Shown: positions 34,387-43,792, counted from the stretch's first letter. The stretch is DNA of 64,000 nt from a virus (IMGVR_UViG_3300022173_000041:9678-73677); one strand, 5' to 3'. The notes: generated from the letters alone by a model not told the origin. A program made the numbers and translations.

Positions 34387-34780
34387 TTCTCTCCTCCTCT
34401 ATTTCATCCATGATGATCTGAGCCAGCTCAATGTCGTCACCATCTAGCTCACCTTCCATGTCGATCATGGTATTGGAACTAAGGTACGGCGCTACATACA
34501 AATCCCATTCTTCTTGGGACGTAATTCTATACTGCCAGAGAGGAAGCCCAGATATCATTCCGTGTGATATGTGGATATCCCTAACTGAGCCATCAACGAA
34601 ATGTCTTACCATCTTTGCAAACCAACCCCTTTTGGTTTGGTAGAAAGATATTCCTACAAGTCCCTGATCATCACCATTGGCGCCCCAATGTTCCTCGCAC
34701 CGACGAATTAAGTAGTCGGAAGGCTCAAGGTCCCATATGCGCTCACTATCTGTACCAAACTCCTCTATATTTAACATCAT
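34370..34780 (-). CDS. Small protein with acidic C-terminal tag (ELDGDDIELAQIIMDEI)
   Basis: 136 aa; GAGGG RBS. Confidence 0.7.
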   Translation of the reverse strand: MMLNIEEFGTDSERIWDLEPSDYLIRRCEEHWGANGDDQGLVGISFYQTKRGWFAKMVRHFVDGSVRDIHISHGMISGLPLWQYRITSQEEWDLYVAPYLSSNTMIDMEGELDGDDIELAQIIMDEIEEERNGLQK

Positions 34781-34798
34781 AAGTTTCTCCCTCGTTGT

Positions 34799-34837
34799 CG
34801 CTTATCACTAGCGCTCGAAAGCGCTAGGACATAAGCG
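34799..34837 (-). promoter_or_regulatory. Intergenic hairpin element E1 (3x2 internal loop)
   Basis: CGCUUAU-GUC-[CUAGCGCU UUCG AGCGCUAG]-UG-AUAAGCG. Confidence 0.75.
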
Positions 34838-35095
34838 TCAAGTCTTTAGCTTAGCCTCAATTCGATCCAGTTCTGCTCTGGCACCAGCAATGCTGTAGTG
34901 ATTGCTGTACTGGCTGAAACCACGCTGGATAATGCTGCATACGAACAGCACTCCAGCGATCCACTGCAACGCAGAGCTATCCAAAAGATAACCAATGTAG
35001 CAGGAGGCTATCAGACATCCGAAAGTGAAAAAGTCGCAGACTATACTTTCTGCGACTGTCTCATGCAGGATCATGATCTTAATTTTCTCACTCAT
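34838..35095 (-). CDS. Small two-TM membrane protein
   Basis: 85 aa, two hydrophobic helices; GGAGGG RBS. Confidence 0.65.
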   Translation of the reverse strand: MSEKIKIMILHETVAESIVCDFFTFGCLIASCYIGYLLDSSALQWIAGVLFVCSIIQRGFSQYSNHYSIAGARAELDRIEAKLKT

Positions 35096-35105
35096 TTTTC
35101 CCTCC

Positions 35106-35154
35106 TTGAGCAAAGGCGCTCAATGCTAGGGCTCGTAAGCCCTAGTGTTTGAAC
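35106..35154 (-). promoter_or_regulatory. Intergenic hairpin element E2
   Basis: GUUCAA-ACA-[CUAGGGCU UACG AGCCCUAG]-CA-UUGAGC-N6-GCUCAA-GGAGGG. Confidence 0.8.
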
Positions 35155-35237
35155 GTCTGCGACGAATGCGGGGCGGCAAGTTCGCAAGACCGTGAGGATT
35201 TATATGCTGTTCTCACCGCCCCTACCTCGCGCGAGGA

Positions 35238-36515
35238 TTACTTGTAGGGAACAGTCCTGCCATATGGCGCCTTAGCGCCACTGCCAGCCCAGTCCACCCA
35301 CACCACCGGAAAGTCAGGCTGTGGCCCAAAGCTTGAGGTATACATATCGGTCAGGAAGATACAGCCGATAACGTCTTCCATCTTGCCGATTTCTGTCATG
35401 GCGGAATTGAAATCGGTTCCACCACCACCACCAGCATTCCAGCCAATGATGTCCTCTTCTGACTTCGCTTCCAGAGTGTTCTGGATTTGTGTATCGACCG
35501 AAATCAGAGTGACGTGCGATACCAAGTCCTGATTGAGAAGGCTTGCAGCCTCTTCGCACATTTCTTGGATCATCTTCTGGCTAACTGAGCCAGACACGTC
35601 CAGACACATCACAAGCTTGTATACGTTATCGTTGCCATAACCGGGCATGTATTCGTCATTGCCCAGTCGGCGTCGATTAGGACGGGTCCACGTTCGCGTT
35701 GCCTTAGACTTGGCATCGCGAGACATATCGCGGATAAGGTCCTTCCAGTCGATCTTCTCCTTGGGGAAAAGATCACCGATCAGACGCTGGAGATTGCCCG
35801 GCAATGTACCGGGAGGAGACTTCTCCAGAGCGCTTGCGACAGTTCGCTTCCACTGCCGGTCGGCAGCTTCGCGTTCTTCGGGCGTGGTTTCGAACATGGT
35901 GCCGGGAGCTTCCCCATCACCTTCTTCGTCGCCATTGCCCTCGCCTTCACCCTCACCATCCTGATCTTCTTCTTCGTCACCTTCACCATCCTGAGGCTGG
36001 CCTTTCCCCTTTCCTTTCTGGGGTTTGCCTTTGCCTTTCTCGGACTTTCCTTTGCCGCCGTCCTTGCCTTCCTTGTCTTCCTTTTTCTGCTGCTTTTCCT
36101 CCTGCTGTTGCAGGATTTCATAGACAGCTTCGGCAGAAAGTTCGGCAAGCTTGTTATCGCGCAATGCATCACGTGGCATTGGGAAATAGTCTTCGACCAC
36201 CTTGTTGACAGGGAAGTCGCAGGCTTCATTCCACATCTTATTGTCGCGATATCGGCGCCGGGCAGGATGCATCATAGCGCAATGCAGGACGGTATGCAGA
36301 AGCACACCTTCCATGTATTTATCGTTCGCGGCATCGTCCACATATGCGGGATTGAAGAAGATATCGACCCCATCGGACCATACCGTCTTGTGAGATTTAC
36401 TCTCAACAAGATTTGCGCCAAACAGAATGGATGCAAAGAACGGATTGCGCTTTGCTACACGTTCCCGTGCAGTAAGCATTCGTCGCATTGCAGTTGGTTT
36501 CGTTATTCCAAACAT
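35238..36515 (-). CDS. DUF2201-type HExxH-like metallopeptidase + VWA domain protein
   Basis: LLHTVLHCAMMH, WNEACDFPVN, acidic linker, MIDAS-like DVSGS, GGGGTDF. Confidence 0.85.
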   Translation of the reverse strand: MFGITKPTAMRRMLTARERVAKRNPFFASILFGANLVESKSHKTVWSDGVDIFFNPAYVDDAANDKYMEGVLLHTVLHCAMMHPARRRYRDNKMWNEACDFPVNKVVEDYFPMPRDALRDNKLAELSAEAVYEILQQQEEKQQKKEDKEGKDGGKGKSEKGKGKPQKGKGKGQPQDGEGDEEEDQDGEGEGEGNGDEEGDGEAPGTMFETTPEEREAADRQWKRTVASALEKSPPGTLPGNLQRLIGDLFPKEKIDWKDLIRDMSRDAKSKATRTWTRPNRRRLGNDEYMPGYGNDNVYKLVMCLDVSGSVSQKMIQEMCEEAASLLNQDLVSHVTLISVDTQIQNTLEAKSEEDIIGWNAGGGGGTDFNSAMTEIGKMEDVIGCIFLTDMYTSSFGPQPDFPVVWVDWAGSGAKAPYGRTVPYK

Positions 36516-36533
36516 GAATTCTCCCTCTTGTTG

Positions 36534-36595
36534 TGAAGCAGATGTATTGGCGCTTCGTGCTGGGGGCGTGGGAAATCCGCCCCCAGTGTCGAAAC
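36534..36595 (-). promoter_or_regulatory. Intergenic hairpin element E3
   Basis: GUUUCG-ACA-[CUGGGGGCG..CGCCCCCAG]-CA-CGAAGC-N12-GCUUCA before AAGAGGG. Confidence 0.8.
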
Positions 36596-36609
36596 GTCAA
36601 GAGGTACCG

Positions 36610-37656
36610 TCAGACACCCTTGGACGCCTGCCCTTCGATCAGCAAAGCGGCGAGCGCTTCGTTGGTCTTCAGGGACTTGTCGCGACCCATGGCATCGGTA
36701 ACGCACATGGAGGCAACATCCGGTGACATACGTCCCAGATACTTTGCGAACGCGGCGGCATTCTTGGCCGTCAGGTTGCGCGCGATGGTACCAGCCATCA
36801 GATACTGGAAGTGAGCGTCACCGGGCATTTTGGCCTTCATCGGGTCAGCCAAGATGTCTGCGATCTTCGGCAGACCAGCCGCAAGCCGGTCCAAGAAAGC
36901 CGCAAACTGCCTTGAGAAGCCCTCACCCAGAATAGCCAGCGCGGCATTCTCCAAGACACCCTTCAGTGCCTTCGGGTCCATACCAGACGCCTCGGTGTCG
37001 CGCAGAACCTTGTTGAAGTTCTCCAGCGAGCGGGGCGTAGGAAAGGACGGATGATTGACATCGACCTTGTGGATCAGTTCAGGACGCAACTGGAGAAACG
37101 CAATCAGGCGCTTGTCCCAGCCCCACAGCTTGGTCTTTTCAGTGAAGCCGATTTCATCGACCTCGACCGTAATGTGGGCCATGCGGTTTTCCAGAGGCTT
37201 CAACATCTTGTTGTCGCCGCCTCCATCCTCACGGGTGTTTGAGCCCAGAATGATCCGGTTTTTCTTCGGAAGCGGATACCCACCGCACGAACGGTCCAGA
37301 ACCAACTGATAAGACATCTGCTGGAGCTGTACGTTCGCATGACCGAATTCGTCAAAGAACATGACGTGCATTTCGTCATCGTCCTTCGGAACGAACGCGG
37401 GCCGGGTCCAATGGGTAGACATTTCCTCGCGGTTGATCAGCGGCATACCGGTGCCGTCCACAATATCCTTTGTAGAAAGCCGGATGTCGTGCAACTGAGA
37501 TTTGGCGCCAAAGTCCGTTCGGATTTTGGTCATGATCTCAGAGTTGATCACCGCTGACTTGCCGACGCCGGTCGGTCCCTTGATCATGACCGGAATATCC
37601 GCATGGATCAGGGGATAGACAACGTTAGCAAGTTGGGTAATTTTGCACTTCAACAT
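36610..37656 (-). CDS. MoxR-like AAA+ ATPase
   Basis: GPTGVGKS, DIRLS, FFDEFG, NTREDGG, LENRM, FPTPRS. Confidence 0.85.
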   Translation of the reverse strand: MLKCKITQLANVVYPLIHADIPVMIKGPTGVGKSAVINSEIMTKIRTDFGAKSQLHDIRLSTKDIVDGTGMPLINREEMSTHWTRPAFVPKDDDEMHVMFFDEFGHANVQLQQMSYQLVLDRSCGGYPLPKKNRIILGSNTREDGGGDNKMLKPLENRMAHITVEVDEIGFTEKTKLWGWDKRLIAFLQLRPELIHKVDVNHPSFPTPRSLENFNKVLRDTEASGMDPKALKGVLENAALAILGEGFSRQFAAFLDRLAAGLPKIADILADPMKAKMPGDAHFQYLMAGTIARNLTAKNAAAFAKYLGRMSPDVASMCVTDAMGRDKSLKTNEALAALLIEGQASKGV

Positions 37657-37726
37657 AAATAGGTCTCCCTCTTAGAGCAGGATTGCTCAATCATGGACAG
37701 AAGTTACTCTGCCCATGGGTCAACAA

Positions 37727-37822
37727 TCAGTGGCCTTCATCTGGTAGTTTGGCTAGACGCGATATAGAAGCGATTAAACATACCGCTACCCATAAAGCGT
37801 ATAGGATAAAGAATATTTCCAA
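37727..37822 (-). CDS. 31-aa membrane peptide
   Basis: TTG start after AGAGGG; MEIFFILYALWVAVCLIASISRLAKLPDEGH*. Confidence 0.5.
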   Translation of the reverse strand: MEIFFILYALWVAVCLIASISRLAKLPDEGH

Positions 37823-37860
37823 TTTCCCTCTCTTACTCGCGCCTTTGTAGAAAGCACGAT

Positions 37861-37889
37861 TATGGGGCGTTTTTTAGGCGCCCCATAGG
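37861..37889 (-). terminator. Hairpin after the DUF3150-like gene (terminator-like)
   Basis: TATGGGGCG...CGCCCCATA inverted repeat just past the stop; weak U-tract. Confidence 0.45.
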
Positions 37890-37896
37890 CTTGCTC

Positions 37897-38820
37897 TCAG
37901 AAGTCGGCGTATTCGCCTGCATCTGCAACCATATCAGCCACTTGCAAGTCCAAGTGATCTAGCTCAATTGTCTTTGCAAGTATTTTCTTGCCCATTCTGA
38001 TATAGTCCTTGCGGTCAATCTCAGAATTTCGCAATTGATCGGCGGTTATCCATGACAGTCTGGCAATTTGGTTAGCCATCTCATTGATCTCTTTATTGTT
38101 GGTCACGTTCATGGCAAAGAGTATCGTGGATATCTCACTTAGATTGATGAGAAGACTGTCACGAATGATTTTGCCGTCTGCCTTGGTTTTGAAAGCTTCA
38201 AGGCGTTCGACAAAGTTTTCGACCATGCCTCTGGCACGTTGGACCGCATCATGAGCGGCGCCTTTTAGGCGCGTTTCAATCTCCAGCCTCATTGTGTCAG
38301 TGGCTCTTTTGACCGCATCTTCTGCAATGTTTGCTACGAAGTTGGAAGTTTGCGGAATAGGCCAATAGGTCAACTTGTAGGAAAACATCTCGCGAGCCCT
38401 CTTGATTGAGGGATATTCCTGACGATCAAACAAATCGCCAAGTTCTCGCTCACTGTCTGCGACAAGCCCGGGATAGACCTGTAGATATTCTTCCCATGCT
38501 GCACGCAATTCCGCTTCAGCATCGATCATTTTCGTGCGGAACATTTCTTCCAAGTCAGTTGGCAGCAATCGTGACTTATCGTCACCCCATGGCATGGTGT
38601 ACTTATACAGTACCTCACGAACACGCTGGGACGCGGCCACAACCGCTTTGACCTTTGGCTGTTTACGGTCAATCAAGAACTTGCTGGCTTTGGCGCGATT
38701 GGTATTAAGCTTGAACTTTCTTTCCACATATCCTGTGGCTGTCTTATCGCGCCTTTCACCTAGCAAGCCGCCGTTAACAATGGTTACAGATACAAGCATT
38801 GCGGATTTGGCTAGGTCCAT
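37897..38820 (-). CDS. DUF3150-like protein (accompanies MoxR/VWA)
   Basis: AMLVSV, KASKFLID, YKYTMPWGDDKSRLLP, YP..VADSERELGDLFDR.EYPS. Confidence 0.6.
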   Translation of the reverse strand: MDLAKSAMLVSVTIVNGGLLGERRDKTATGYVERKFKLNTNRAKASKFLIDRKQPKVKAVVAASQRVREVLYKYTMPWGDDKSRLLPTDLEEMFRTKMIDAEAELRAAWEEYLQVYPGLVADSERELGDLFDRQEYPSIKRAREMFSYKLTYWPIPQTSNFVANIAEDAVKRATDTMRLEIETRLKGAAHDAVQRARGMVENFVERLEAFKTKADGKIIRDSLLINLSEISTILFAMNVTNNKEINEMANQIARLSWITADQLRNSEIDRKDYIRMGKKILAKTIELDHLDLQVADMVADAGEYADF

Positions 38821-38835
38821 TTGTATTCTCCCTCT

Positions 38836-38883
38836 TGAGCGTAGGCGCTCATCACTGAGGCTTGTAAGCCTCAGGACATGAAC
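38836..38883 (-). promoter_or_regulatory. Intergenic hairpin element E4
   Basis: GUUCAU-GUC-[CUGAGGCU UACA AGCCUCAG]-UG-AUGAGC-N6-GCUCA-AGAGGG. Confidence 0.8.
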
Positions 38884-38884
38884 G

Positions 38885-39049
38885 TCATATTTGAGCAGTC
38901 ATTGCGCCTGCTACGGCGGCAAAGAATACTGTGCTGTAGTATTCTCGTTGATGGGTCCATCCAAATAGGTAGTCAAAACCTAACCAGACAACCATTACAA
39001 AGCCGCCCCAGAACAAGCTTCTGCCTAGTCTTTCAAAGAACGGCGCCAT
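38885..39049 (-). CDS. Small two-TM membrane protein
   Basis: 54 aa MAPFFERLGRSLFWGGF..; TAATG coupling. Confidence 0.6.
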   Translation of the reverse strand: MAPFFERLGRSLFWGGFVMVVWLGFDYLFGWTHQREYYSTVFFAAVAGAMTAQI

Positions 39050-39450
39050 TAGTGCAACGTTCGCGCTGCTACTGGGGATTTCTTTTTCCCGCATTTGCAG
39101 ATTGCGTCGTGGCACTGGAGCGCGATGTCTCCAGCGTCTTCCTCATCCAGATTGCCCAGTTGGGCAGCCATGGCCATGAATGCAGGTATTGCATCATGGG
39201 GAAGCTTGAGGCTTTCCAGCAAGCGCTTTGATTTGGCGATTGCGTAATTGCCTACCTTGGTAGGAGCGTCACCGATTTCCTTGGTTTCTGCAAAGAACGG
39301 CATGATAACAAGGAAGCGATAGAAACTCTCATCAGTGGCGCCCCAGATAGGGAACAACTCTGCGAGACAACGCTTTGAAAACGTCACGCCATTAAGGCGA
39401 AACGCATGCGCTGTTTCGTGAATATCAACCTTGATTGCACTTGTAGTCAT
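39049..39450 (-). CDS. Hypothetical protein
   Basis: 133 aa; AAGAGGG RBS. Confidence 0.7.
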   Translation of the reverse strand: MTTSAIKVDIHETAHAFRLNGVTFSKRCLAELFPIWGATDESFYRFLVIMPFFAETKEIGDAPTKVGNYAIAKSKRLLESLKLPHDAIPAFMAMAAQLGNLDEEDAGDIALQCHDAICKCGKKKSPVAARTLH

Positions 39451-39466
39451 GATATCTCCCTCTTAT

Positions 39467-39513
39467 TGAGCAAAATGCTCACCATTACAGCCCGTAGGCT
39501 GTAAGCCGTGAAC
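39467..39513 (-). promoter_or_regulatory. Intergenic hairpin element E5
   Basis: GUUCAC-GGC-[UUACAGCC UACG GGCUGUAA]-UG-GUGAGC-N5-GCUCA. Confidence 0.8.
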
Positions 39514-39514
39514 A

Positions 39515-39952
39515 CTAGCGAAACTTTGAGCGGCCCTTGATGAGCTTCTCAATGGTTTCTTTGGCGTAGTATGGATCAAGTAACCCATAATAACCGTTGA
39601 GCAGTGTGGCCCGCTTCAGGTAGCGAGTAGAGAATTCAACTCCGAAATAGTCAGAGTGAATTCGCTTCTCTGGATTTGTTTCTGACCATGTTGGGTCAAT
39701 GATAAATCCATTTTCATCAACGACCCAAGCATGCTGCAAAGCCACGCCATGAACGCACGCATAGCCTTCAACGTATTTGAGCTTACTATTGTCGATAGCC
39801 ATTAGCGTTGCATTCATGAAGCATAACCCCGCTTCCATGCGCTTGCCCTCATACGTCTTTGGGCCAATTTCAAATGGCCTTCCGTGTTTGAGGACAAAAC
39901 GATCTATAGGGGAATGCTGTGCAGTGAACGCAAGATATTCTTTCGTGTTCAT
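39515..39952 (-). CDS. Putative transglutaminase/papain-fold protein
   Basis: CFMNA...YVEGYA...QHAWVV...IIDPTW: Cys-His-Asp in triad order. Confidence 0.55.
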
Positions 39953-40118
39953 CTATGGATTGCTCCAATCTTGATGAGTTCATTCGCGCGCCGTCCATAC
40001 ATACCCTGTAGAGACCACGCTAGGCCGGTATCGACAAGCTTCTGGAAGAACGTTTCTTCACGTTCCTCGTGTCCATCTCGCCGTTTTCCCAAGCCATGAT
40101 ATCGTCAATGTCAGGCAT
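39949..40118 (-). pseudogene. Small phage gene split by a 1-nt frameshift
   Basis: [16 protein letters not shown] in one frame, [40 protein letters not shown] in another; 170 nt; both ends coupled to neighbours. Confidence 0.65.
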
Positions 40119-40317
40119 CGGCCTTCTCCTCAGGAACGCCACTTGCTTCAAGGAAGCGAGCGCGATCAAAGTTGGAGTTGGTCAATTCCAGTGCATCAGC
40201 GAATGCGCGTGCAACAACTGGGGTTAAGCCTTCCATATCTTCATATGTAGAAAGCTTCGCTAGGACATCCGCGATTATTTCGAAATGCCCGCGCTGCATA
40301 TTTACACTTCTTGCCAT
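40111..40317 (-). CDS. Hypothetical protein
   Basis: MARSVNMQRGHFEIIADVL...FADALELTNSNFDRARFLEASG. Confidence 0.7.
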   Translation of the reverse strand: MARSVNMQRGHFEIIADVLAKLSTYEDMEGLTPVVARAFADALELTNSNFDRARFLEASGVPEEKADA

Positions 40318-40335
40318 AATGGTTTTCCCTCTCAT

Positions 40336-40390
40336 TGAAGCATAAGCGCTTCGTGCTGGCGCCGGGATTATTCGGCGCCAGTGTCGAAAT
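40336..40390 (-). promoter_or_regulatory. Intergenic hairpin element E6
   Basis: AUUUCG-ACA-[CUGGCGCCG..CGGCGCCAG]-CA-CGAAGC-N6-GCUUCA. Confidence 0.8.
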
Positions 40391-40392
40391 GC

Positions 40393-40563
40393 TTACTTGT
40401 GATTTGGTTCCCAAAGCCAAATCAGGTTTGTTAGAGCATTCAAAATTCCAGCCTCAATCATAAGACTGGGATTATGAATGCTGATAATCGTGGTCGATGT
40501 TATTCCAATCGTAACGAGCAACTGGAATGCACGATGCTTGCGAACAACCATGAGAAAGCGCAT
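40393..40563 (-). CDS. Small membrane protein (56 aa)
   Basis: TGAATG coupling; two hydrophobic stretches. Confidence 0.5.
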   Translation of the reverse strand: MRFLMVVRKHRAFQLLVTIGITSTTIISIHNPSLMIEAGILNALTNLIWLWEPNHK

Positions 40564-40773
40564 TCATGCCTCCCCACCATCGCCTAGCACGACCATTGCA
40601 ATACCCATGATGAGCAGAATTCCGCCCATACCAGAGTAAAAGCCGTGGCCCTCGTAAAACACCCCGCCGAAATAGGCGAGATGAGCATAGCTGTGGCCTT
40701 CATGAAGCCACTTATGGGCATGGTGCCGATAGGCCCTGATCCTTGCCCGGGCGCGATCAATGAGCATGCTCAT
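40564..40773 (-). CDS. His-rich small membrane protein
   Basis: MSMLIDRARAR...HHAHKWLHEGHSYAHL...C-terminal TM. Confidence 0.55.
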   Translation of the reverse strand: MSMLIDRARARIRAYRHHAHKWLHEGHSYAHLAYFGGVFYEGHGFYSGMGGILLIMGIAMVVLGDGGEA

Positions 40774-40859
40774 TTGATAGCCTCCAGAACAAACATCAGG
40801 ACAATGAAAGCGAACCATGCGGGCGCAAGACGCCAGCTCAAGTCCATCAAATCATCCAT
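40770..40859 (-). CDS. 29-aa membrane peptide
   Basis: AAGAGGG RBS; MDDLMDLSWRLAPAWFAFIVLMFVLEAIK*; ATGA overlap downstream. Confidence 0.55.
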   Translation of the reverse strand: MDDLMDLSWRLAPAWFAFIVLMFVLEAIK

Positions 40860-40877
40860 GACAAGTTTCCCTCTTGT

Positions 40878-41010
40878 GGAGCACTAGCGCTCCTTGATGC
40901 AATCCAGAATGTTACAAGTCCTCGCCTGCCATTTCGTTGGCCATACTGAGAAACTAGAAAAATCAGCATGTTGACTATGCACATTGCGTCTAGTTGACAC
41001 TGGATTGCAC
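40878..41010 (-). ncRNA. Structured intergenic RNA closed by a long-range 10-bp stem
   Basis: TGCAATCCAG (40898-40907) is complementary to CTGGATTGCA (41000-41009); internal hairpins; GGAGC/GCTCC hairpin before the RBS. Confidence 0.5.
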
Positions 41011-41019
41011 TTAGGAAAG

Positions 41020-41241
41020 CTATGCGGCGCGACCGTTCGCTAAAACGGTGCGGCGCGTGGTATCGCCTTCCAAAGCTTCGATTTCCGCTGCAAACTTTTC
41101 AGCCTGCAATTCAGCCTCTGATACAGGCCGGTATCCATTGGGCGCACCATTGACAATGTTGCGTCGGGATACACGCGCGCCGTGTTCTGCCTGTTGAGCA
41201 TTCACAACGTCACGATATGAAGCATTGGTATTGACGGTCAT
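41020..41241 (-). CDS. Hypothetical protein
   Basis: 73 aa; AGAGGG RBS. Confidence 0.65.
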   Translation of the reverse strand: MTVNTNASYRDVVNAQQAEHGARVSRRNIVNGAPNGYRPVSEAELQAEKFAAEIEALEGDTTRRTVLANGRAA

Positions 41242-41257
41242 AACGGTTTTCCCTCTA

Positions 41258-41307
41258 TGAAGCTTAATTGCTTCATGCTGGGGCTTATTAGGCCCCAGTG
41301 TTGAAAC
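41258..41307 (-). promoter_or_regulatory. Intergenic hairpin element E7
   Basis: GUUUCA-ACA-[CUGGGGC..GCCCCAG]-CA-UGAAGC-N6-GCUUCA-UAGAGGG. Confidence 0.8.
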
Positions 41308-41309
41308 AA

Positions 41310-41579
41310 TCAGATTGCAGCGCTAGTCCCTGTGACTTCAGGGGCATTAGCTTTTGCAAGCTTTCTGACCTTTGCGCGTGCGGTGTTGAGCATGCTGAAA
41401 ATCCGTCGTTTGGTCTCAGCATGTCCAACTGCATTTGCGTGCGGTAGCGCCAATTCGAGCGCTAGCTTTGACGCGCGCCAATCTTCATTGGCTGCCAGAC
41501 GATCAGCCGTAGAAAGATGAATTTGCATCGTCATGCGGTGACTGTCTCGCATTGCGTCAGTGAGCAGTGGCTTGGACAT
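41310..41579 (-). CDS. Hypothetical helical protein
   Basis: 89 aa; AGAGGG RBS. Confidence 0.65.
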   Translation of the reverse strand: MSKPLLTDAMRDSHRMTMQIHLSTADRLAANEDWRASKLALELALPHANAVGHAETKRRIFSMLNTARAKVRKLAKANAPEVTGTSAAI

Positions 41580-41596
41580 GATATTTCCCTCTCTAG

Positions 41597-41645
41597 TGAA
41601 GCGTAAATGCTTCGTGCAGCGCTATTGCTAGCGCTGTGTCGAAAC
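41597..41645 (-). promoter_or_regulatory. Intergenic hairpin element E8
   Basis: GUUUCG-ACA-[CAGCGCUA GCAA UAGCGCUG]-CA-CGAAGC-N6-GCUUCA. Confidence 0.8.
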
Positions 41646-41647
41646 AT

Positions 41648-41839
41648 TCAGGAATGAGTGTAACCGTCCAGCTCAATTCCAAGCCACATGCCTGCCCATT
41701 TAATCATGGCGTAGTCGCGCCCGATTTGAACAGACTTGCGGAATTCGCGGTATGAAATGCGCTTATCGTTTTCGATGATAGGCGCACGGTCAAACACTCG
41801 TTTGAGCGCTTGTTGCTGGGGTTTGTTGAGGGTTGCCAT
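41648..41839 (-). CDS. Small conserved-looking phage protein
   Basis: QQQALKRVFDR...SYREFRK...W.GMWLGIELDGYTHS. Confidence 0.7.
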   Translation of the reverse strand: MATLNKPQQQALKRVFDRAPIIENDKRISYREFRKSVQIGRDYAMIKWAGMWLGIELDGYTHS

Positions 41840-41934
41840 TAGTGCAACGCCATAACCAGAGCAACGAGAGCGCCCAGATAGAGCGCCAGCGCAAACCAGT
41901 GCGTGCGTTCGGTGGGTATCTCTGAGATTTTCAT
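41839..41934 (-). CDS. 31-aa membrane peptide
   Basis: AAGAGGGG RBS; TAATG coupling; C-terminal TM. Confidence 0.55.
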   Translation of the reverse strand: MKISEIPTERTHWFALALYLGALVALVMALH

Positions 41935-41947
41935 GGTTTTCCCCTCT

Positions 41948-42000
41948 TGAAGCGTAAATGCTTCGTTCTGGCGCCCATAATTGAGCGCCAGCGTCGAAAC
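41948..42000 (-). promoter_or_regulatory. Intergenic hairpin element E9
   Basis: GUUUCG-ACG-[CUGGCGCUCA AUUA UGGGCGCCAG]-AA-CGAAGC-N6-GCUUCA-AGAGGGG. Confidence 0.8.
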
Positions 42001-42001
42001 A

Positions 42002-42109
42002 TTAGCTTGGGAGATTGTTACCAATGCGCGGATTAGTTGGCTGATTGAGCCAATAAAGCACGCGATTAGTCGCCTTAATGCGGCGTTTGGTTTGTTCCTT
42101 GCGCGTCAT
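42002..42109 (-). CDS. 35-aa basic peptide
   Basis: MTRKEQTKRRIKATNRVLYWL..; its stop directly precedes E9. Confidence 0.45.
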   Translation of the reverse strand: MTRKEQTKRRIKATNRVLYWLNQPTNPRIGNNLPS

Positions 42110-42113
42110 GGTA

Positions 42114-42299
42114 TCAAACCGCGTAGTCTGACGCGGTAAGCTGCCATGCATTCCGCAAGGCGTTGGGCTGACGGTATACCGTCACGCTACCGTGACGGTG
42201 CAACACTTCCTTAGCGCCGTATGTCCTGACGGGATTGTGAAACGTCCTGCCATGATCAGAAGCGCTAGAAAGGTTCGCTAAGCCGTTGTCCGTTGTCAT
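42114..42299 (-). CDS. Hypothetical protein, first leftward early gene
   Basis: 61 aa; AAGAGGG RBS. Confidence 0.6.
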   Translation of the reverse strand: MTTDNGLANLSSASDHGRTFHNPVRTYGAKEVLHRHGSVTVYRQPNALRNAWQLTASDYAV

Positions 42300-42390
42300 G
42301 ATAAGTTTCCCTCTTATCGGCAAAATTGCCTAATAGCTTGCCCTGCTAGCCCCTTGTGAGGGCTAATCAGAGCAAGCCAATTGGTAGTTT

Positions 42391-42428
42391 AGAAGAGGAA
42401 AAGGAAATGAGGGGCCGCTAAGCCCCTC
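42391..42428 (-). terminator. Rho-independent terminator upstream of the leftward early genes
   Basis: GAGGGG/CCCCTC stem followed on the minus strand by ATTTCCTTTTCCTCTTCT. Confidence 0.6.
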
Positions 42429-43190
42429 CCATGTTATGCCAAGTGCAATGCTTGATAATCATCCTAGACTATCAACGAAGCGATGGTTTGCCCCGCCCGG
42501 CTTACAAGCTATTGTCTGGTTAGCGTCACGCCTTAAGCGCTAAGCCTGCCATATCGTCGCCTTGCGGCTGATAATCAGGAGAAGGTCGCGCCCGCCATGG
42601 TTACTTTCGGACCGCTACACTGGGACGCTATGCCCATATCGCGAAAGGCTTGATGCCTGTCCTATCCTAGCCACGGTCCAGAGTTGGCACGTTGCTTGCG
42701 AAATTATGGTAAGTCTCAAACGGTTATCTGTCCCATTTGTCCGGTCCTCCGGATATCAGTAGCCACTCGCTATGGCCCCGATTTGCCAGCGCCTTGTCAG
42801 GCTGGCGGCGTATTCTCAGAAGCGTCTATCTCAGTACCTCAGTTCGTTTCAGTCCTCAGAACATAAGGCTTGGTACCAATCCAGTTAGTGGGTCTAACGC
42901 ATGGCTGATATGCATTCCCGCATACCTCCATTGCCAAGCCTCTATCCATGCCAAATGAAAAACCGCAACGTTCCCCAATGGATAGACGCGCTCCACAAGC
43001 CCCTAGGAAGCCCATAGAGAGGGATAAACAAGACAGACTGACCTAGATCGCCCTAAAGAAATATCGCCCTCACAGCCTTACGCCCGCCATATGCACGATA
43101 CCGGGCAGATGGACCATAATCCTAGCGATAGGAATACAAGGCAGAAAGGCTAGGAAAACCGCCTCTCGTCGCACGTTCCCCTGATACCCA

Positions 43191-43608
43191 CATGCGAACC
43201 ATTCGCATGTGGAACAGCCCCTAGAACGCGATACGACGCGCGCCCATGAGCGATCATGTCGGCGCTACCTAGCATCGCCCGAAATGCCCAACTCACCCAT
43301 GGCCACGCCACGCAATGTTGCACCGCAACACCTATGCACCTAGCGCATAGCTCTGCCTAGATTGTGCCACAGTTCCAATGCGTTAGACGCATAGCTCTGG
43401 TATGCATAAACCGCATGGCTACCTGCGAACCACTCGCAACAAGGACCATGCCAAGCCCCCCTCCCCCCATGCATAGCTGGTATGCGTATATGCATGGCTC
43501 ATCCACATGCGAACCATTCGCATCAAGCATCGTGCCACTAGCTATGCACTGCACGCACTGCACCTATGCGCTCCACGCATGGCTAGGTGCTAATGAGAAT
43601 CATTCGCA
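43191..43608. repeat. Four copies of a 7-1-7 inverted repeat TG(C/A)GAAY-C-AYTCGCA
   Basis: Copies at 43193, 43424, 43508, 43594. Confidence 0.65.
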
Positions 43609-43718
43609 AGAAGGGACCCGACCGGGTGGGGGGCCGCTATCGGAGAGGCCGGGCCGGGGCTGAGCCTTCTCTGCCCTCTCTCCTTTATGAGAAATTTTAG
43701 ATCAACCCCCATTGTATT

Positions 43719-43777
43719 GTAACGCCATGTAACACATCTTGTAACGCAACGTAACGCAAACTGTAACGCGGTGTAAC
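43719..43777 (+). repeat. Six helically phased GTAAC repeats
   Basis: Starts at 43719, 43729, 43741, 43751, 43763, 43773. Confidence 0.85.
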
Positions 43778-43792
43778 AGGGGTTTAGAGGTA

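Follow-up and report, generated by a model that had tools for sequence, protein, structure and literature searches.

Covarying intercistronic RNA hairpins with a conserved alternative fold in an accessory-gene operon of an uncultivated phage: possible RNase III-type processing signals

The uncultivated phage IMGVR_UViG_3300022173_000041 carries a hairpin in one intergenic gap after another of a leftward operon, which raises the question of whether these sequences act as RNA or as DNA and what they do for the genes that they separate. The window analyzed is a stretch of 64,000 nucleotides (nt) that covers bases 9678 to 73677 of the complete 73,677-bp IMG/VR genome, which has direct terminal repeats; coordinates below are those of the window. 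The nine hairpins (E1 to E9) belong to the leftward of two blocks of small genes, a codirectional minus-strand operon of small open reading frames (ORFs) and three larger genes, encoding a DUF3150-like protein, a MoxR-like AAA ATPase and a DUF2201 metallopeptidase/VWA protein. Each canonical element consists of a segment A, a 3-nt loop strand, a capped upper stem, a 2-nt loop strand and a segment B that pairs with A; a third segment, A', is a better-pairing copy of A located 0 to 10 nt ahead of the Shine-Dalgarno sequence. The analysis establishes the structure of the elements, their selection, strand specificity, position and modularity, together with two-state thermodynamics in folding predictions; processing by RNase III is the function tentatively proposed.

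A covariance model (R1) built from eight window copies, with E9 outside the seed, scored 47 to 62 bits on the seed copies (E values of 1e-14 to 2e-10), recovered E9 at 30.5 bits (E = 4.5e-6) and gave exactly nine matches in a search of all 73,677 bp of the genome, each of them on the minus strand. Elsewhere in the window scores were at most 24 bits, and the best of this remainder were the antisense strands of the same loci. Reading of the strand together with R1 locates all nine minus-strand hairpins that an earlier note on this DNA had claimed between 34.8 and 42.0 kb; the loci stand, whereas the single coordinate given there for each is the 3' end of segment A'. The loop types ACA/CA, GUC/UG, GGC/UG and ACG/AA are also as described there.

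The pairing is supported by extensive covariation. In the eight-copy alignment, 98.2% of cells are paired and 11 of 14 pairs change on both sides, which none of 500 shuffles matches; slid registers pair at only 32 to 46%. Four related phages (L001 to L004), found via the ATPase (82, 82, 62 and 61% amino acid identity), each carry 8 to 11 copies on the sense strand of the same operon. Two larger alignments were fitted to the model: A4, with 40 distinct copies from the window phage and these relatives, and A5, with 51 distinct copies from further contigs that were fished with a pattern fixed on the ACA/CA core. Paired cells amount to 98.2% in A4, with a covariation score of 0.82 versus 0.20 in shuffles, and to 99.0% in A5 (0.54 versus 0.13), compared with 33 to 56% in slid registers. 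Upper-stem pairs, which the search pattern did not constrain, occur as up to five pair types each. At orthologous positions ahead of the DUF3150, ATPase and VWA genes (the last in all five phages), the fold is kept and the upper stems are wholly different. The compensatory changes proposed in the earlier note are therefore borne out both among paralogues and between phages.

Several features indicate that RNA of the sense strand is the form under selection. Lower-stem pair 2 is U·G in 34 of 40 A4 copies and in 47 of 51 A5 copies (lower-stem conservation in A5 being inflated by the ACA/CA-core search pattern), so the complementary strand would carry an A/C mismatch there. Apical tetraloops (n = 47) include 21 UNCG and 12 GNRA loops, i.e., 33 of 47, where about 5% would be expected if all were equally likely, and such caps stabilize RNA specifically. 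The apical loop is otherwise free, being variable in sequence and 3 to 38 nt in length. In one element of L002 (7004 to 7093 of that contig, plus strand) it holds a 38-nt insertion that is itself capable of forming a hairpin, and the remainder is intact (39 bits), which indicates that the apex tolerates insertions. Conservation is highest in the internal loop and on either side of it, at the top of the lower stem and in the first three pairs of the upper stem. Facing positions of the 3x2 loop are A/A, G/G, A/C, C/U and similar combinations but never Watson-Crick pairs, and the mismatch itself is thus maintained. The elements are selected sense-strand RNA structures.

The A:B pairing is present as the earlier note described, but its length of 6 to 7 nt was an underestimate, as the lower stem really comprises 7 to 12 bp. 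The nucleotide before A pairs with the nucleotide after B in 40 of 40 copies (UA in 23, CG in 17), and extension of the helix further out averages 3.0 bp, versus 1.4 ± 0.18 in shuffles. The upstream stop codon sits within the 5' strand of this stem. The gap from stop to A is 1 to 3 nt in approximately 35 of 45 copies across the five phages; in the window it is 1 to 2 nt in seven copies, in agreement with the seven previously placed 0 to 2 nt past a stop, 14 nt in E7 and large in E8. Upper stems of 8 to 12 bp bring the whole helix to 15 to 24 bp around the asymmetric loop. The distance from A to the next start codon is 54 to 80 nt in most copies, and all copies lie between minus-strand ORFs.

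The third segment has a covariation record of its own. Although the alignment was fitted without regard to B:A', the five core pairs of this helix are intact in 96 to 97% of the copies having letters there, and two core pairs covary in three classes, with 23 double-change cells versus 7.0 ± 1.9 in shuffles. At least four Watson-Crick pairs are possible in 80 of 90 distinct copies; in the window there are five to six in eight copies, the number claimed before, and the pairing is absent from E9. Folding predictions give B:A' a median probability of 0.008 in intact RNA, which rises to 0.95 once A has been blocked or cut away. The mutually exclusive fold put forward in the earlier note thus covaries and is predicted to form only with A withdrawn, and the elements are, in these folding calculations, bistable two-state structures. 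A switch based on occlusion of the Shine-Dalgarno sequence was considered and rejected, as blocking or removing A shifts the predicted mean unpaired value of that sequence from 0.45 to no more than 0.56, which is no strong gating.

The elements travel with the genes that follow them. Nucleotide homology between the window and its relatives often sets in 0 to 5 nt from an element's 5' edge and extends into the gene that follows, and unrelated cassettes have paralogous elements as their sole similarity. Among the five phages the small genes, each flanked by elements, occur in different orders. Gaps in the operon (lengths resting on approximate gene calls) are bimodal, with neighboring genes abutting or overlapping in one class and 57 to 94 nt apart, with one element in between, in the other; longer gaps hold an element and something else, and every gap of >50 nt contains an element or a small RNA (sRNA)-like stretch. 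The element belongs to the downstream gene and marks cassette junctions. Of the suggestion that the hairpins are gene-shuffling sites, the shuffling at elements is upheld; as a rival function it is not, since shuffling is rather a consequence of modularity.

This association extends beyond the five phages. The pattern of the commonest core matched 29 stretches in approximately 25 IMG/VR contigs and four stretches in GTDB genomes, all of them Bradyrhizobium. Bradyrhizobium elkanii WSM2783 has five copies clustered within approximately 3 kb, at about 28.6 to 31.8 kb of its genome contig C47. Two of them score the same as copies in one 72-kb IMG/VR record; the DNA in that record is probably the same, and it may represent a WSM2783 prophage. 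The carriers that lie within bacterial genomes are probably prophages. The elements co-occur with the DUF3150/ATPase/VWA triad even where ATPase identity is only 23 to 29%, and in nearly all relatives an element stands ahead of each gene of the triad.

The reading tentatively favored here, at somewhat below an even chance, is that the elements are processing sites analogous to those of T7, at which RNase III would leave a 3' hairpin on the upstream message and a 5' hairpin on the downstream one. From this analogy we infer cleavage, the enzyme, the cut site and a stabilizing effect. The elements would be cis-acting signals in the polycistronic transcript of the leftward accessory-gene operon, and the host RNase III, a double-strand-specific endonuclease, would cut one strand on the 3' side of the 3x2 loop, as at T7 early sites. 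The upstream cistron would be left with the stable, UNCG- or GNRA-capped upper hairpin at its 3' end, a barrier to 3' exonucleases. B, released from A, would pair with A', and the downstream cistron would then start with a hairpin, with a 5' overhang of at most 2 nt, that would guard it against 5'-end-dependent decay. A 5' hairpin with a short overhang is the configuration that protects from 5'-end-dependent attack by RNase E. Every hairpin-RBS-gene cassette (RBS, ribosome binding site) would in this way become an independent, context-insulated message.

Processing by RNase III is the best-fitting model in that it uses every conserved feature and offers a rationale for modularity, with each cassette bringing its own insulating leader. 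The size of the lower stem (7 to 12 bp) and of the helix (15 to 24 bp) makes it fit better, as does T7 site R0.5, which, when folded for comparison, likewise has a stop codon (that of gene 0.4) in its lower stem. Loops and mismatches at RNase III target sites restrict cutting to one strand, single-strand cuts create stabilizing 3' hairpins, and cellular substrates are typically under approximately 20 bp (PMC3867540). An element-bearing host genome encodes RNase III, and no RNase III gene was found in the phage genome. Within the order Rhizobiales, the RNase III of Sinorhizobium meliloti has been characterized on T7 R1.1, a 60-nt hairpin with a 4/5 loop (PMC6121014).

Several observations weigh against this reading. 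The S. meliloti enzyme is reported to need longer double-stranded RNA than that of Escherichia coli and to cut R1.1 atypically (PMC6121014), and both the upper stem (8 to 12 bp) and the loop (3x2 versus 4x5 in R1.1) are smaller here than in T7 sites. The tight stop-to-A spacing of 1 to 3 nt is not required for processing and fits a ribosome trigger equally well. A' is absent from E9 and from approximately 10% of copies. On the T7 early region the best R1 score was 11.4 bits, outside the RNase III sites, so there is no sequence homology; the likeness to T7 sites is one of analogy only, not of common descent.

A broader formulation, possible though rather uncertain, covers two triggers: the element would be a portable expression insulator that works by strand hand-over, B passing from A to A' upon either endonucleolytic cleavage or the arrival of a terminating ribosome. 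One structure would then serve as a 3' cap for the upstream message and as a 5' cap or launch pad for the downstream one, and expression of a shuffled cassette would not depend on the genes beside it.

The main rival to RNase III processing, unlikely but to be taken seriously, is a ribosome-triggered switch for translational coupling. A ribosome at the stop codon would occupy or melt the lower stem, B would flip to A', and initiation at the RBS approximately 65 nt downstream would be promoted either by this change of fold or by the spacer being compacted into two hairpins. The position of the stop 1 to 3 nt ahead of A, within the extended lower stem, is what such a switch would predict, and blocking A alone suffices to raise the predicted median probability of B:A' from 0.008 to 0.95; the bimodal gaps, with either overlapping genes or one element, are likewise consistent with coupling. 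However, Shine-Dalgarno accessibility is predicted to shift so little (0.45 to 0.56) that the switch has no clear output, E8 and a divergent copy ahead of the operon's first gene (E0) have no adjacent upstream stop, and the conserved mismatched loop and extra-stable tetraloops are left without a role. R0.5, where RNase III is known to cut, has its stop codon in the lower stem as well.

The sequence is most conserved near the loop (C-G, U-A and G-C at the base of the upper stem, with a fixed U·G and a U-A in the lower stem), the apex is variable and loop types covary as classes, all of which would suit recognition of this conserved core by a protein of phage or host origin, for instance one that regulates translation or counters decay. 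This explanation is nevertheless improbable: no candidate RNA-binding protein was found, the co-occurring genes being the DUF3150/MoxR ATPase/VWA triad, and A' is left unexplained.

The variable gene order with elements flanking each gene, the homology blocks that begin at element edges and the cassettes that share only paralogous elements could also be produced by DNA-level cassette junctions, i.e., PeSL-like or attC-like recombination sequences in which the RNA fold is incidental. The G·U pairs, the UNCG and GNRA caps, the strict sense orientation and the placement of A' beside the RBS point instead to selection on RNA and make this very improbable. Furthermore, there is neither a promoter nor a U-tract as in PeSLs, no RAYT gene is present, and direct reading gives a GTT/AAC order opposite to that of integron attC sites. 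The likeness to attC was therefore rejected on the reversed GTT...AAC order and the strong RNA signatures. Since protein-coding genes, each with an RBS of its own, stand between the units, a TIGR- or CRISPR-like array was rejected. A self-cleaving ribozyme is improbable, as no Rfam ribozyme matches and a single small loop seems too simple.

Transcription terminators, attenuators or nut/put-like antitermination sites, suggested by stable GC-rich hairpins with an alternative fold inside an operon and by the put-like antiterminators that the earlier note listed, can practically be dismissed, since no U-run follows the elements or B:A' (what comes after the upper stem is the 2-nt loop and B), the terminator scan flags none of them, Rfam gives no match and 9 to 11 copies per operon are unlike nut or put sites. 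The promoter and terminator scan found no consensus sites at the elements, and promoter-like sites were fewer than in shuffles.

The individual elements, all on the minus strand, share this architecture with some variation. E1 (41948 to 42001; 56.9 bits) has A, the 3x2 loop, a 10-bp upper stem, B and A'; a TAA stop lies 1 nt ahead of A, and the next gene is a membrane-like ORF of 31 amino acids (41934 to 41839). The canonical elements E2 (41597 to 41646; 58.6 bits; GCAA tetraloop), E3 (41258 to 41308; 60.9 bits; 6-bp B:A') and E4 (40336 to 40392; 58.4 bits) precede ORFs of 89 (41579 to 41310), 73 (41241 to 41020) and 68 (40317 to 40111) amino acids, respectively; the lower stem of E4 reaches approximately 11 bp with one A/C mismatch and has the TAA stop inside. 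E5 (39467 to 39514; 48.7 bits) is canonical with a GGC/UG loop and a UACG tetraloop and precedes an ORF of 133 amino acids (39450 to 39049). E6 (38836 to 38884; 57.3 bits), canonical with a GUC/UG loop, precedes the DUF3150-like gene (38820 to 37897) and has orthologous copies in L001, L003 and L004. E7 (36534 to 36596; 46.9 bits), canonical with a 12-nt linker from B to A', precedes the peptidase/VWA gene (36515 to 35238) and has orthologues in all four relatives; its true upstream stop is 14 nt off, yet TGAC is kept directly ahead of A. E8 (35106 to 35155; 62.4 bits), ahead of an ORF of 85 amino acids (35095 to 34838), is the only canonical element without an adjacent stop codon. E9 (34799 to 34838; 30.5 bits) is a variant with a different 7-bp lower stem, a UUCG tetraloop and no A', and precedes an ORF of 136 amino acids (34780 to 34370).

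Three further minus-strand structures diverge from this set. E0 (42322 to 42378) lies ahead of the first gene of the operon with no upstream ORF and comprises a two-tier hairpin interrupted by a 3x2 loop and, immediately ahead of the RBS, a second hairpin that is small and separate; it was found by a generic structure scan (minimum free energy, -42.7 kcal/mol) and is not detected by R1. A divergent copy at 37675 to 37726, ahead of the ATPase gene (37656 to 36610), scores 8.8 bits; B and A' are recognizable and the lower stem has a mismatch, its orthologous copies score 17 to 39 bits in L001 to L003, and the homology block with L001 begins there. Directly after the DUF3150-like gene, sequence reading revealed a putative structural analogue of different sequence (37852 to 37896), in which the stop codon overlaps the lower stem and a 3x3 loop is topped by an 8-bp upper stem; it precedes a TTG-start hydrophobic ORF of 31 amino acids. 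This ORF (37727 to 37822) and that following E1 (41839 to 41934), both hydrophobic and on the minus strand, each have their own element and a strong RBS and look like genuine micro-membrane proteins rather than spacers. Between the stop of the VWA gene and E8 lies an extra GC-rich inverted repeat with 7-bp arms and a long loop (35160 to 35237, minus strand).

In the remainder of the genome, which has a G+C content of 51%, the plus strand carries structural, lysis and packaging genes, and the two blocks of small genes diverge from a 1.4-kb noncoding region (42.4 to 43.8 kb). This region (42400 to 43790) contains four copies of an approximately 19-nt inverted-repeat motif, a cluster of about seven GTTAC(A) words and two promoter-like sites (43745 to 43694, minus strand) and is a candidate origin or regulatory region. 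Immediately upstream of E0 is a hairpin with a U-run that resembles a terminator (42428 to 42409, minus strand). The three larger genes of the operon occupy 37897 to 38820 (DUF3150-like), 36610 to 37656 (MoxR-like AAA ATPase) and 35238 to 36515 (DUF2201 metallopeptidase/VWA) on the minus strand. Protein searches gave only distant relatives for the ATPase (27 to 34% identity to those of phages of several hosts) and 26% identity to cyanophage proteins for the DUF3150-like protein, and the hairpin region had no blastn match among GenBank phages. The single-subunit RNA polymerase family PF00940 had no match in the phage, and the control genomes likewise had none. The sole long gap without a canonical hairpin, of 161 nt, is filled by a full-length match to the sRNA family Atu_At1 (RF02496; 40902 to 41009, minus strand; 83.4 bits versus a gathering score of 60). 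This match is a phage-borne copy of a plasmid or host sRNA family of Rhizobiales and hints at a Rhizobiales host.

The hairpin family is undescribed, although the kind of signal is known from T7. An Rfam search, which the earlier note had set as a check of novelty, gave no match to the elements with Rfam 15 at the gathering threshold over the whole window; at E values up to 5 over 34500 to 42500, only Atu_At1 matched, elsewhere in the operon. No description of this family in rhizobiophages was found in the literature searched. To our knowledge, the three-segment hand-over design has not been described for RNase III sites, and intercistronic processing hairpins, textbook for T7, are hardly cataloged elsewhere. 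Phages and probable prophages of Rhizobiales, soybean and legume symbionts among these bacteria, carry the family widely. Its covariation record is unusually clean, and its third segment predicts refolding into a 5' hairpin, triggered by cleavage or by a ribosome. If true, this would show how mosaic phage operons keep cassettes functionally independent of their neighbors and would give synthetic biology in alphaproteobacteria a small insulator part of natural origin. The elements are available in a cultivable system, B. elkanii WSM2783.

Among known systems, the promoter-early stem-loop (PeSL) cassettes of T4-type phages also place short intergenic motifs around small accessory genes at junctions of modular shuffling (PMC4122927). 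PeSLs, however, join an early sigma-70 promoter to a terminator-like stem-loop, whereas the elements lack promoter hexamers and a U-tract. The REP/BIME sequences of enterobacteria resemble the elements as strand-specific imperfect palindromes that follow stop codons inside operons and stabilize upstream mRNA. Liang, Rudd and Deutscher reportedly found in 2015 that a REP lying no more than 15 nt from a stop codon influences how the upstream gene is translated. The present elements differ in having no conserved GTAG head and in being phage borne, tied to the downstream RBS and equipped with A'; RAYT (PF01797) had no match in the complete phage genome and did match in control genomes.

The start-associated sequences with extended inverted repeats (SAS/ESAS) of Cluster K mycobacteriophages are alike in arrangement only: 11 to 19 copies per genome lie in one orientation at nonstructural genes only, as imperfect inverted repeats with a variable spacer of 4 to 13 bp directly upstream of a conserved RBS-containing motif, and they are conserved at orthologous genes, with function unknown (PMC3203893). 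They differ in sequence and host phylum; an internal loop or an alternative fold has not been described in them, nor has an analysis of covariation. Neither the 13-bp SAS consensus nor the 17-bp inverted repeats are the motif found here, where the RBS context is AGAGGGA and the repeat sequence is another.

The T7 early sites (R0.3, R0.5, R1, R1.1 and R1.3), whose cleavage coordinates we take to be those of Dunn and Studier (1983), are likewise paralogous hairpins that lie between the cistrons of a single polycistronic phage operon. Folding of the T7 early intergenic regions for comparison gave a lower stem, an asymmetric loop and an upper stem, with the RBS approximately 20 nt further on, and the two families have in common two coaxial stems around an asymmetric loop, a conserved core, a variable apex and a stop-to-start spacer of approximately 60 to 80 nt. 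They differ in loop size (4x5 in T7, 3x2 here), in the somewhat shorter stems of the present elements, in the lack of sequence or model similarity and in the setting, which here comprises Rhizobiales hosts and some carriers within bacterial genomes; moreover, A' and its alternative 5' hairpin are conserved here, and none was seen in the folded T7 sites. The present family is thus distinguished by its conserved third segment and bistable design, its nearly fixed G·U wobble, its maintained mismatch loop and its breadth across Rhizobiales phages.

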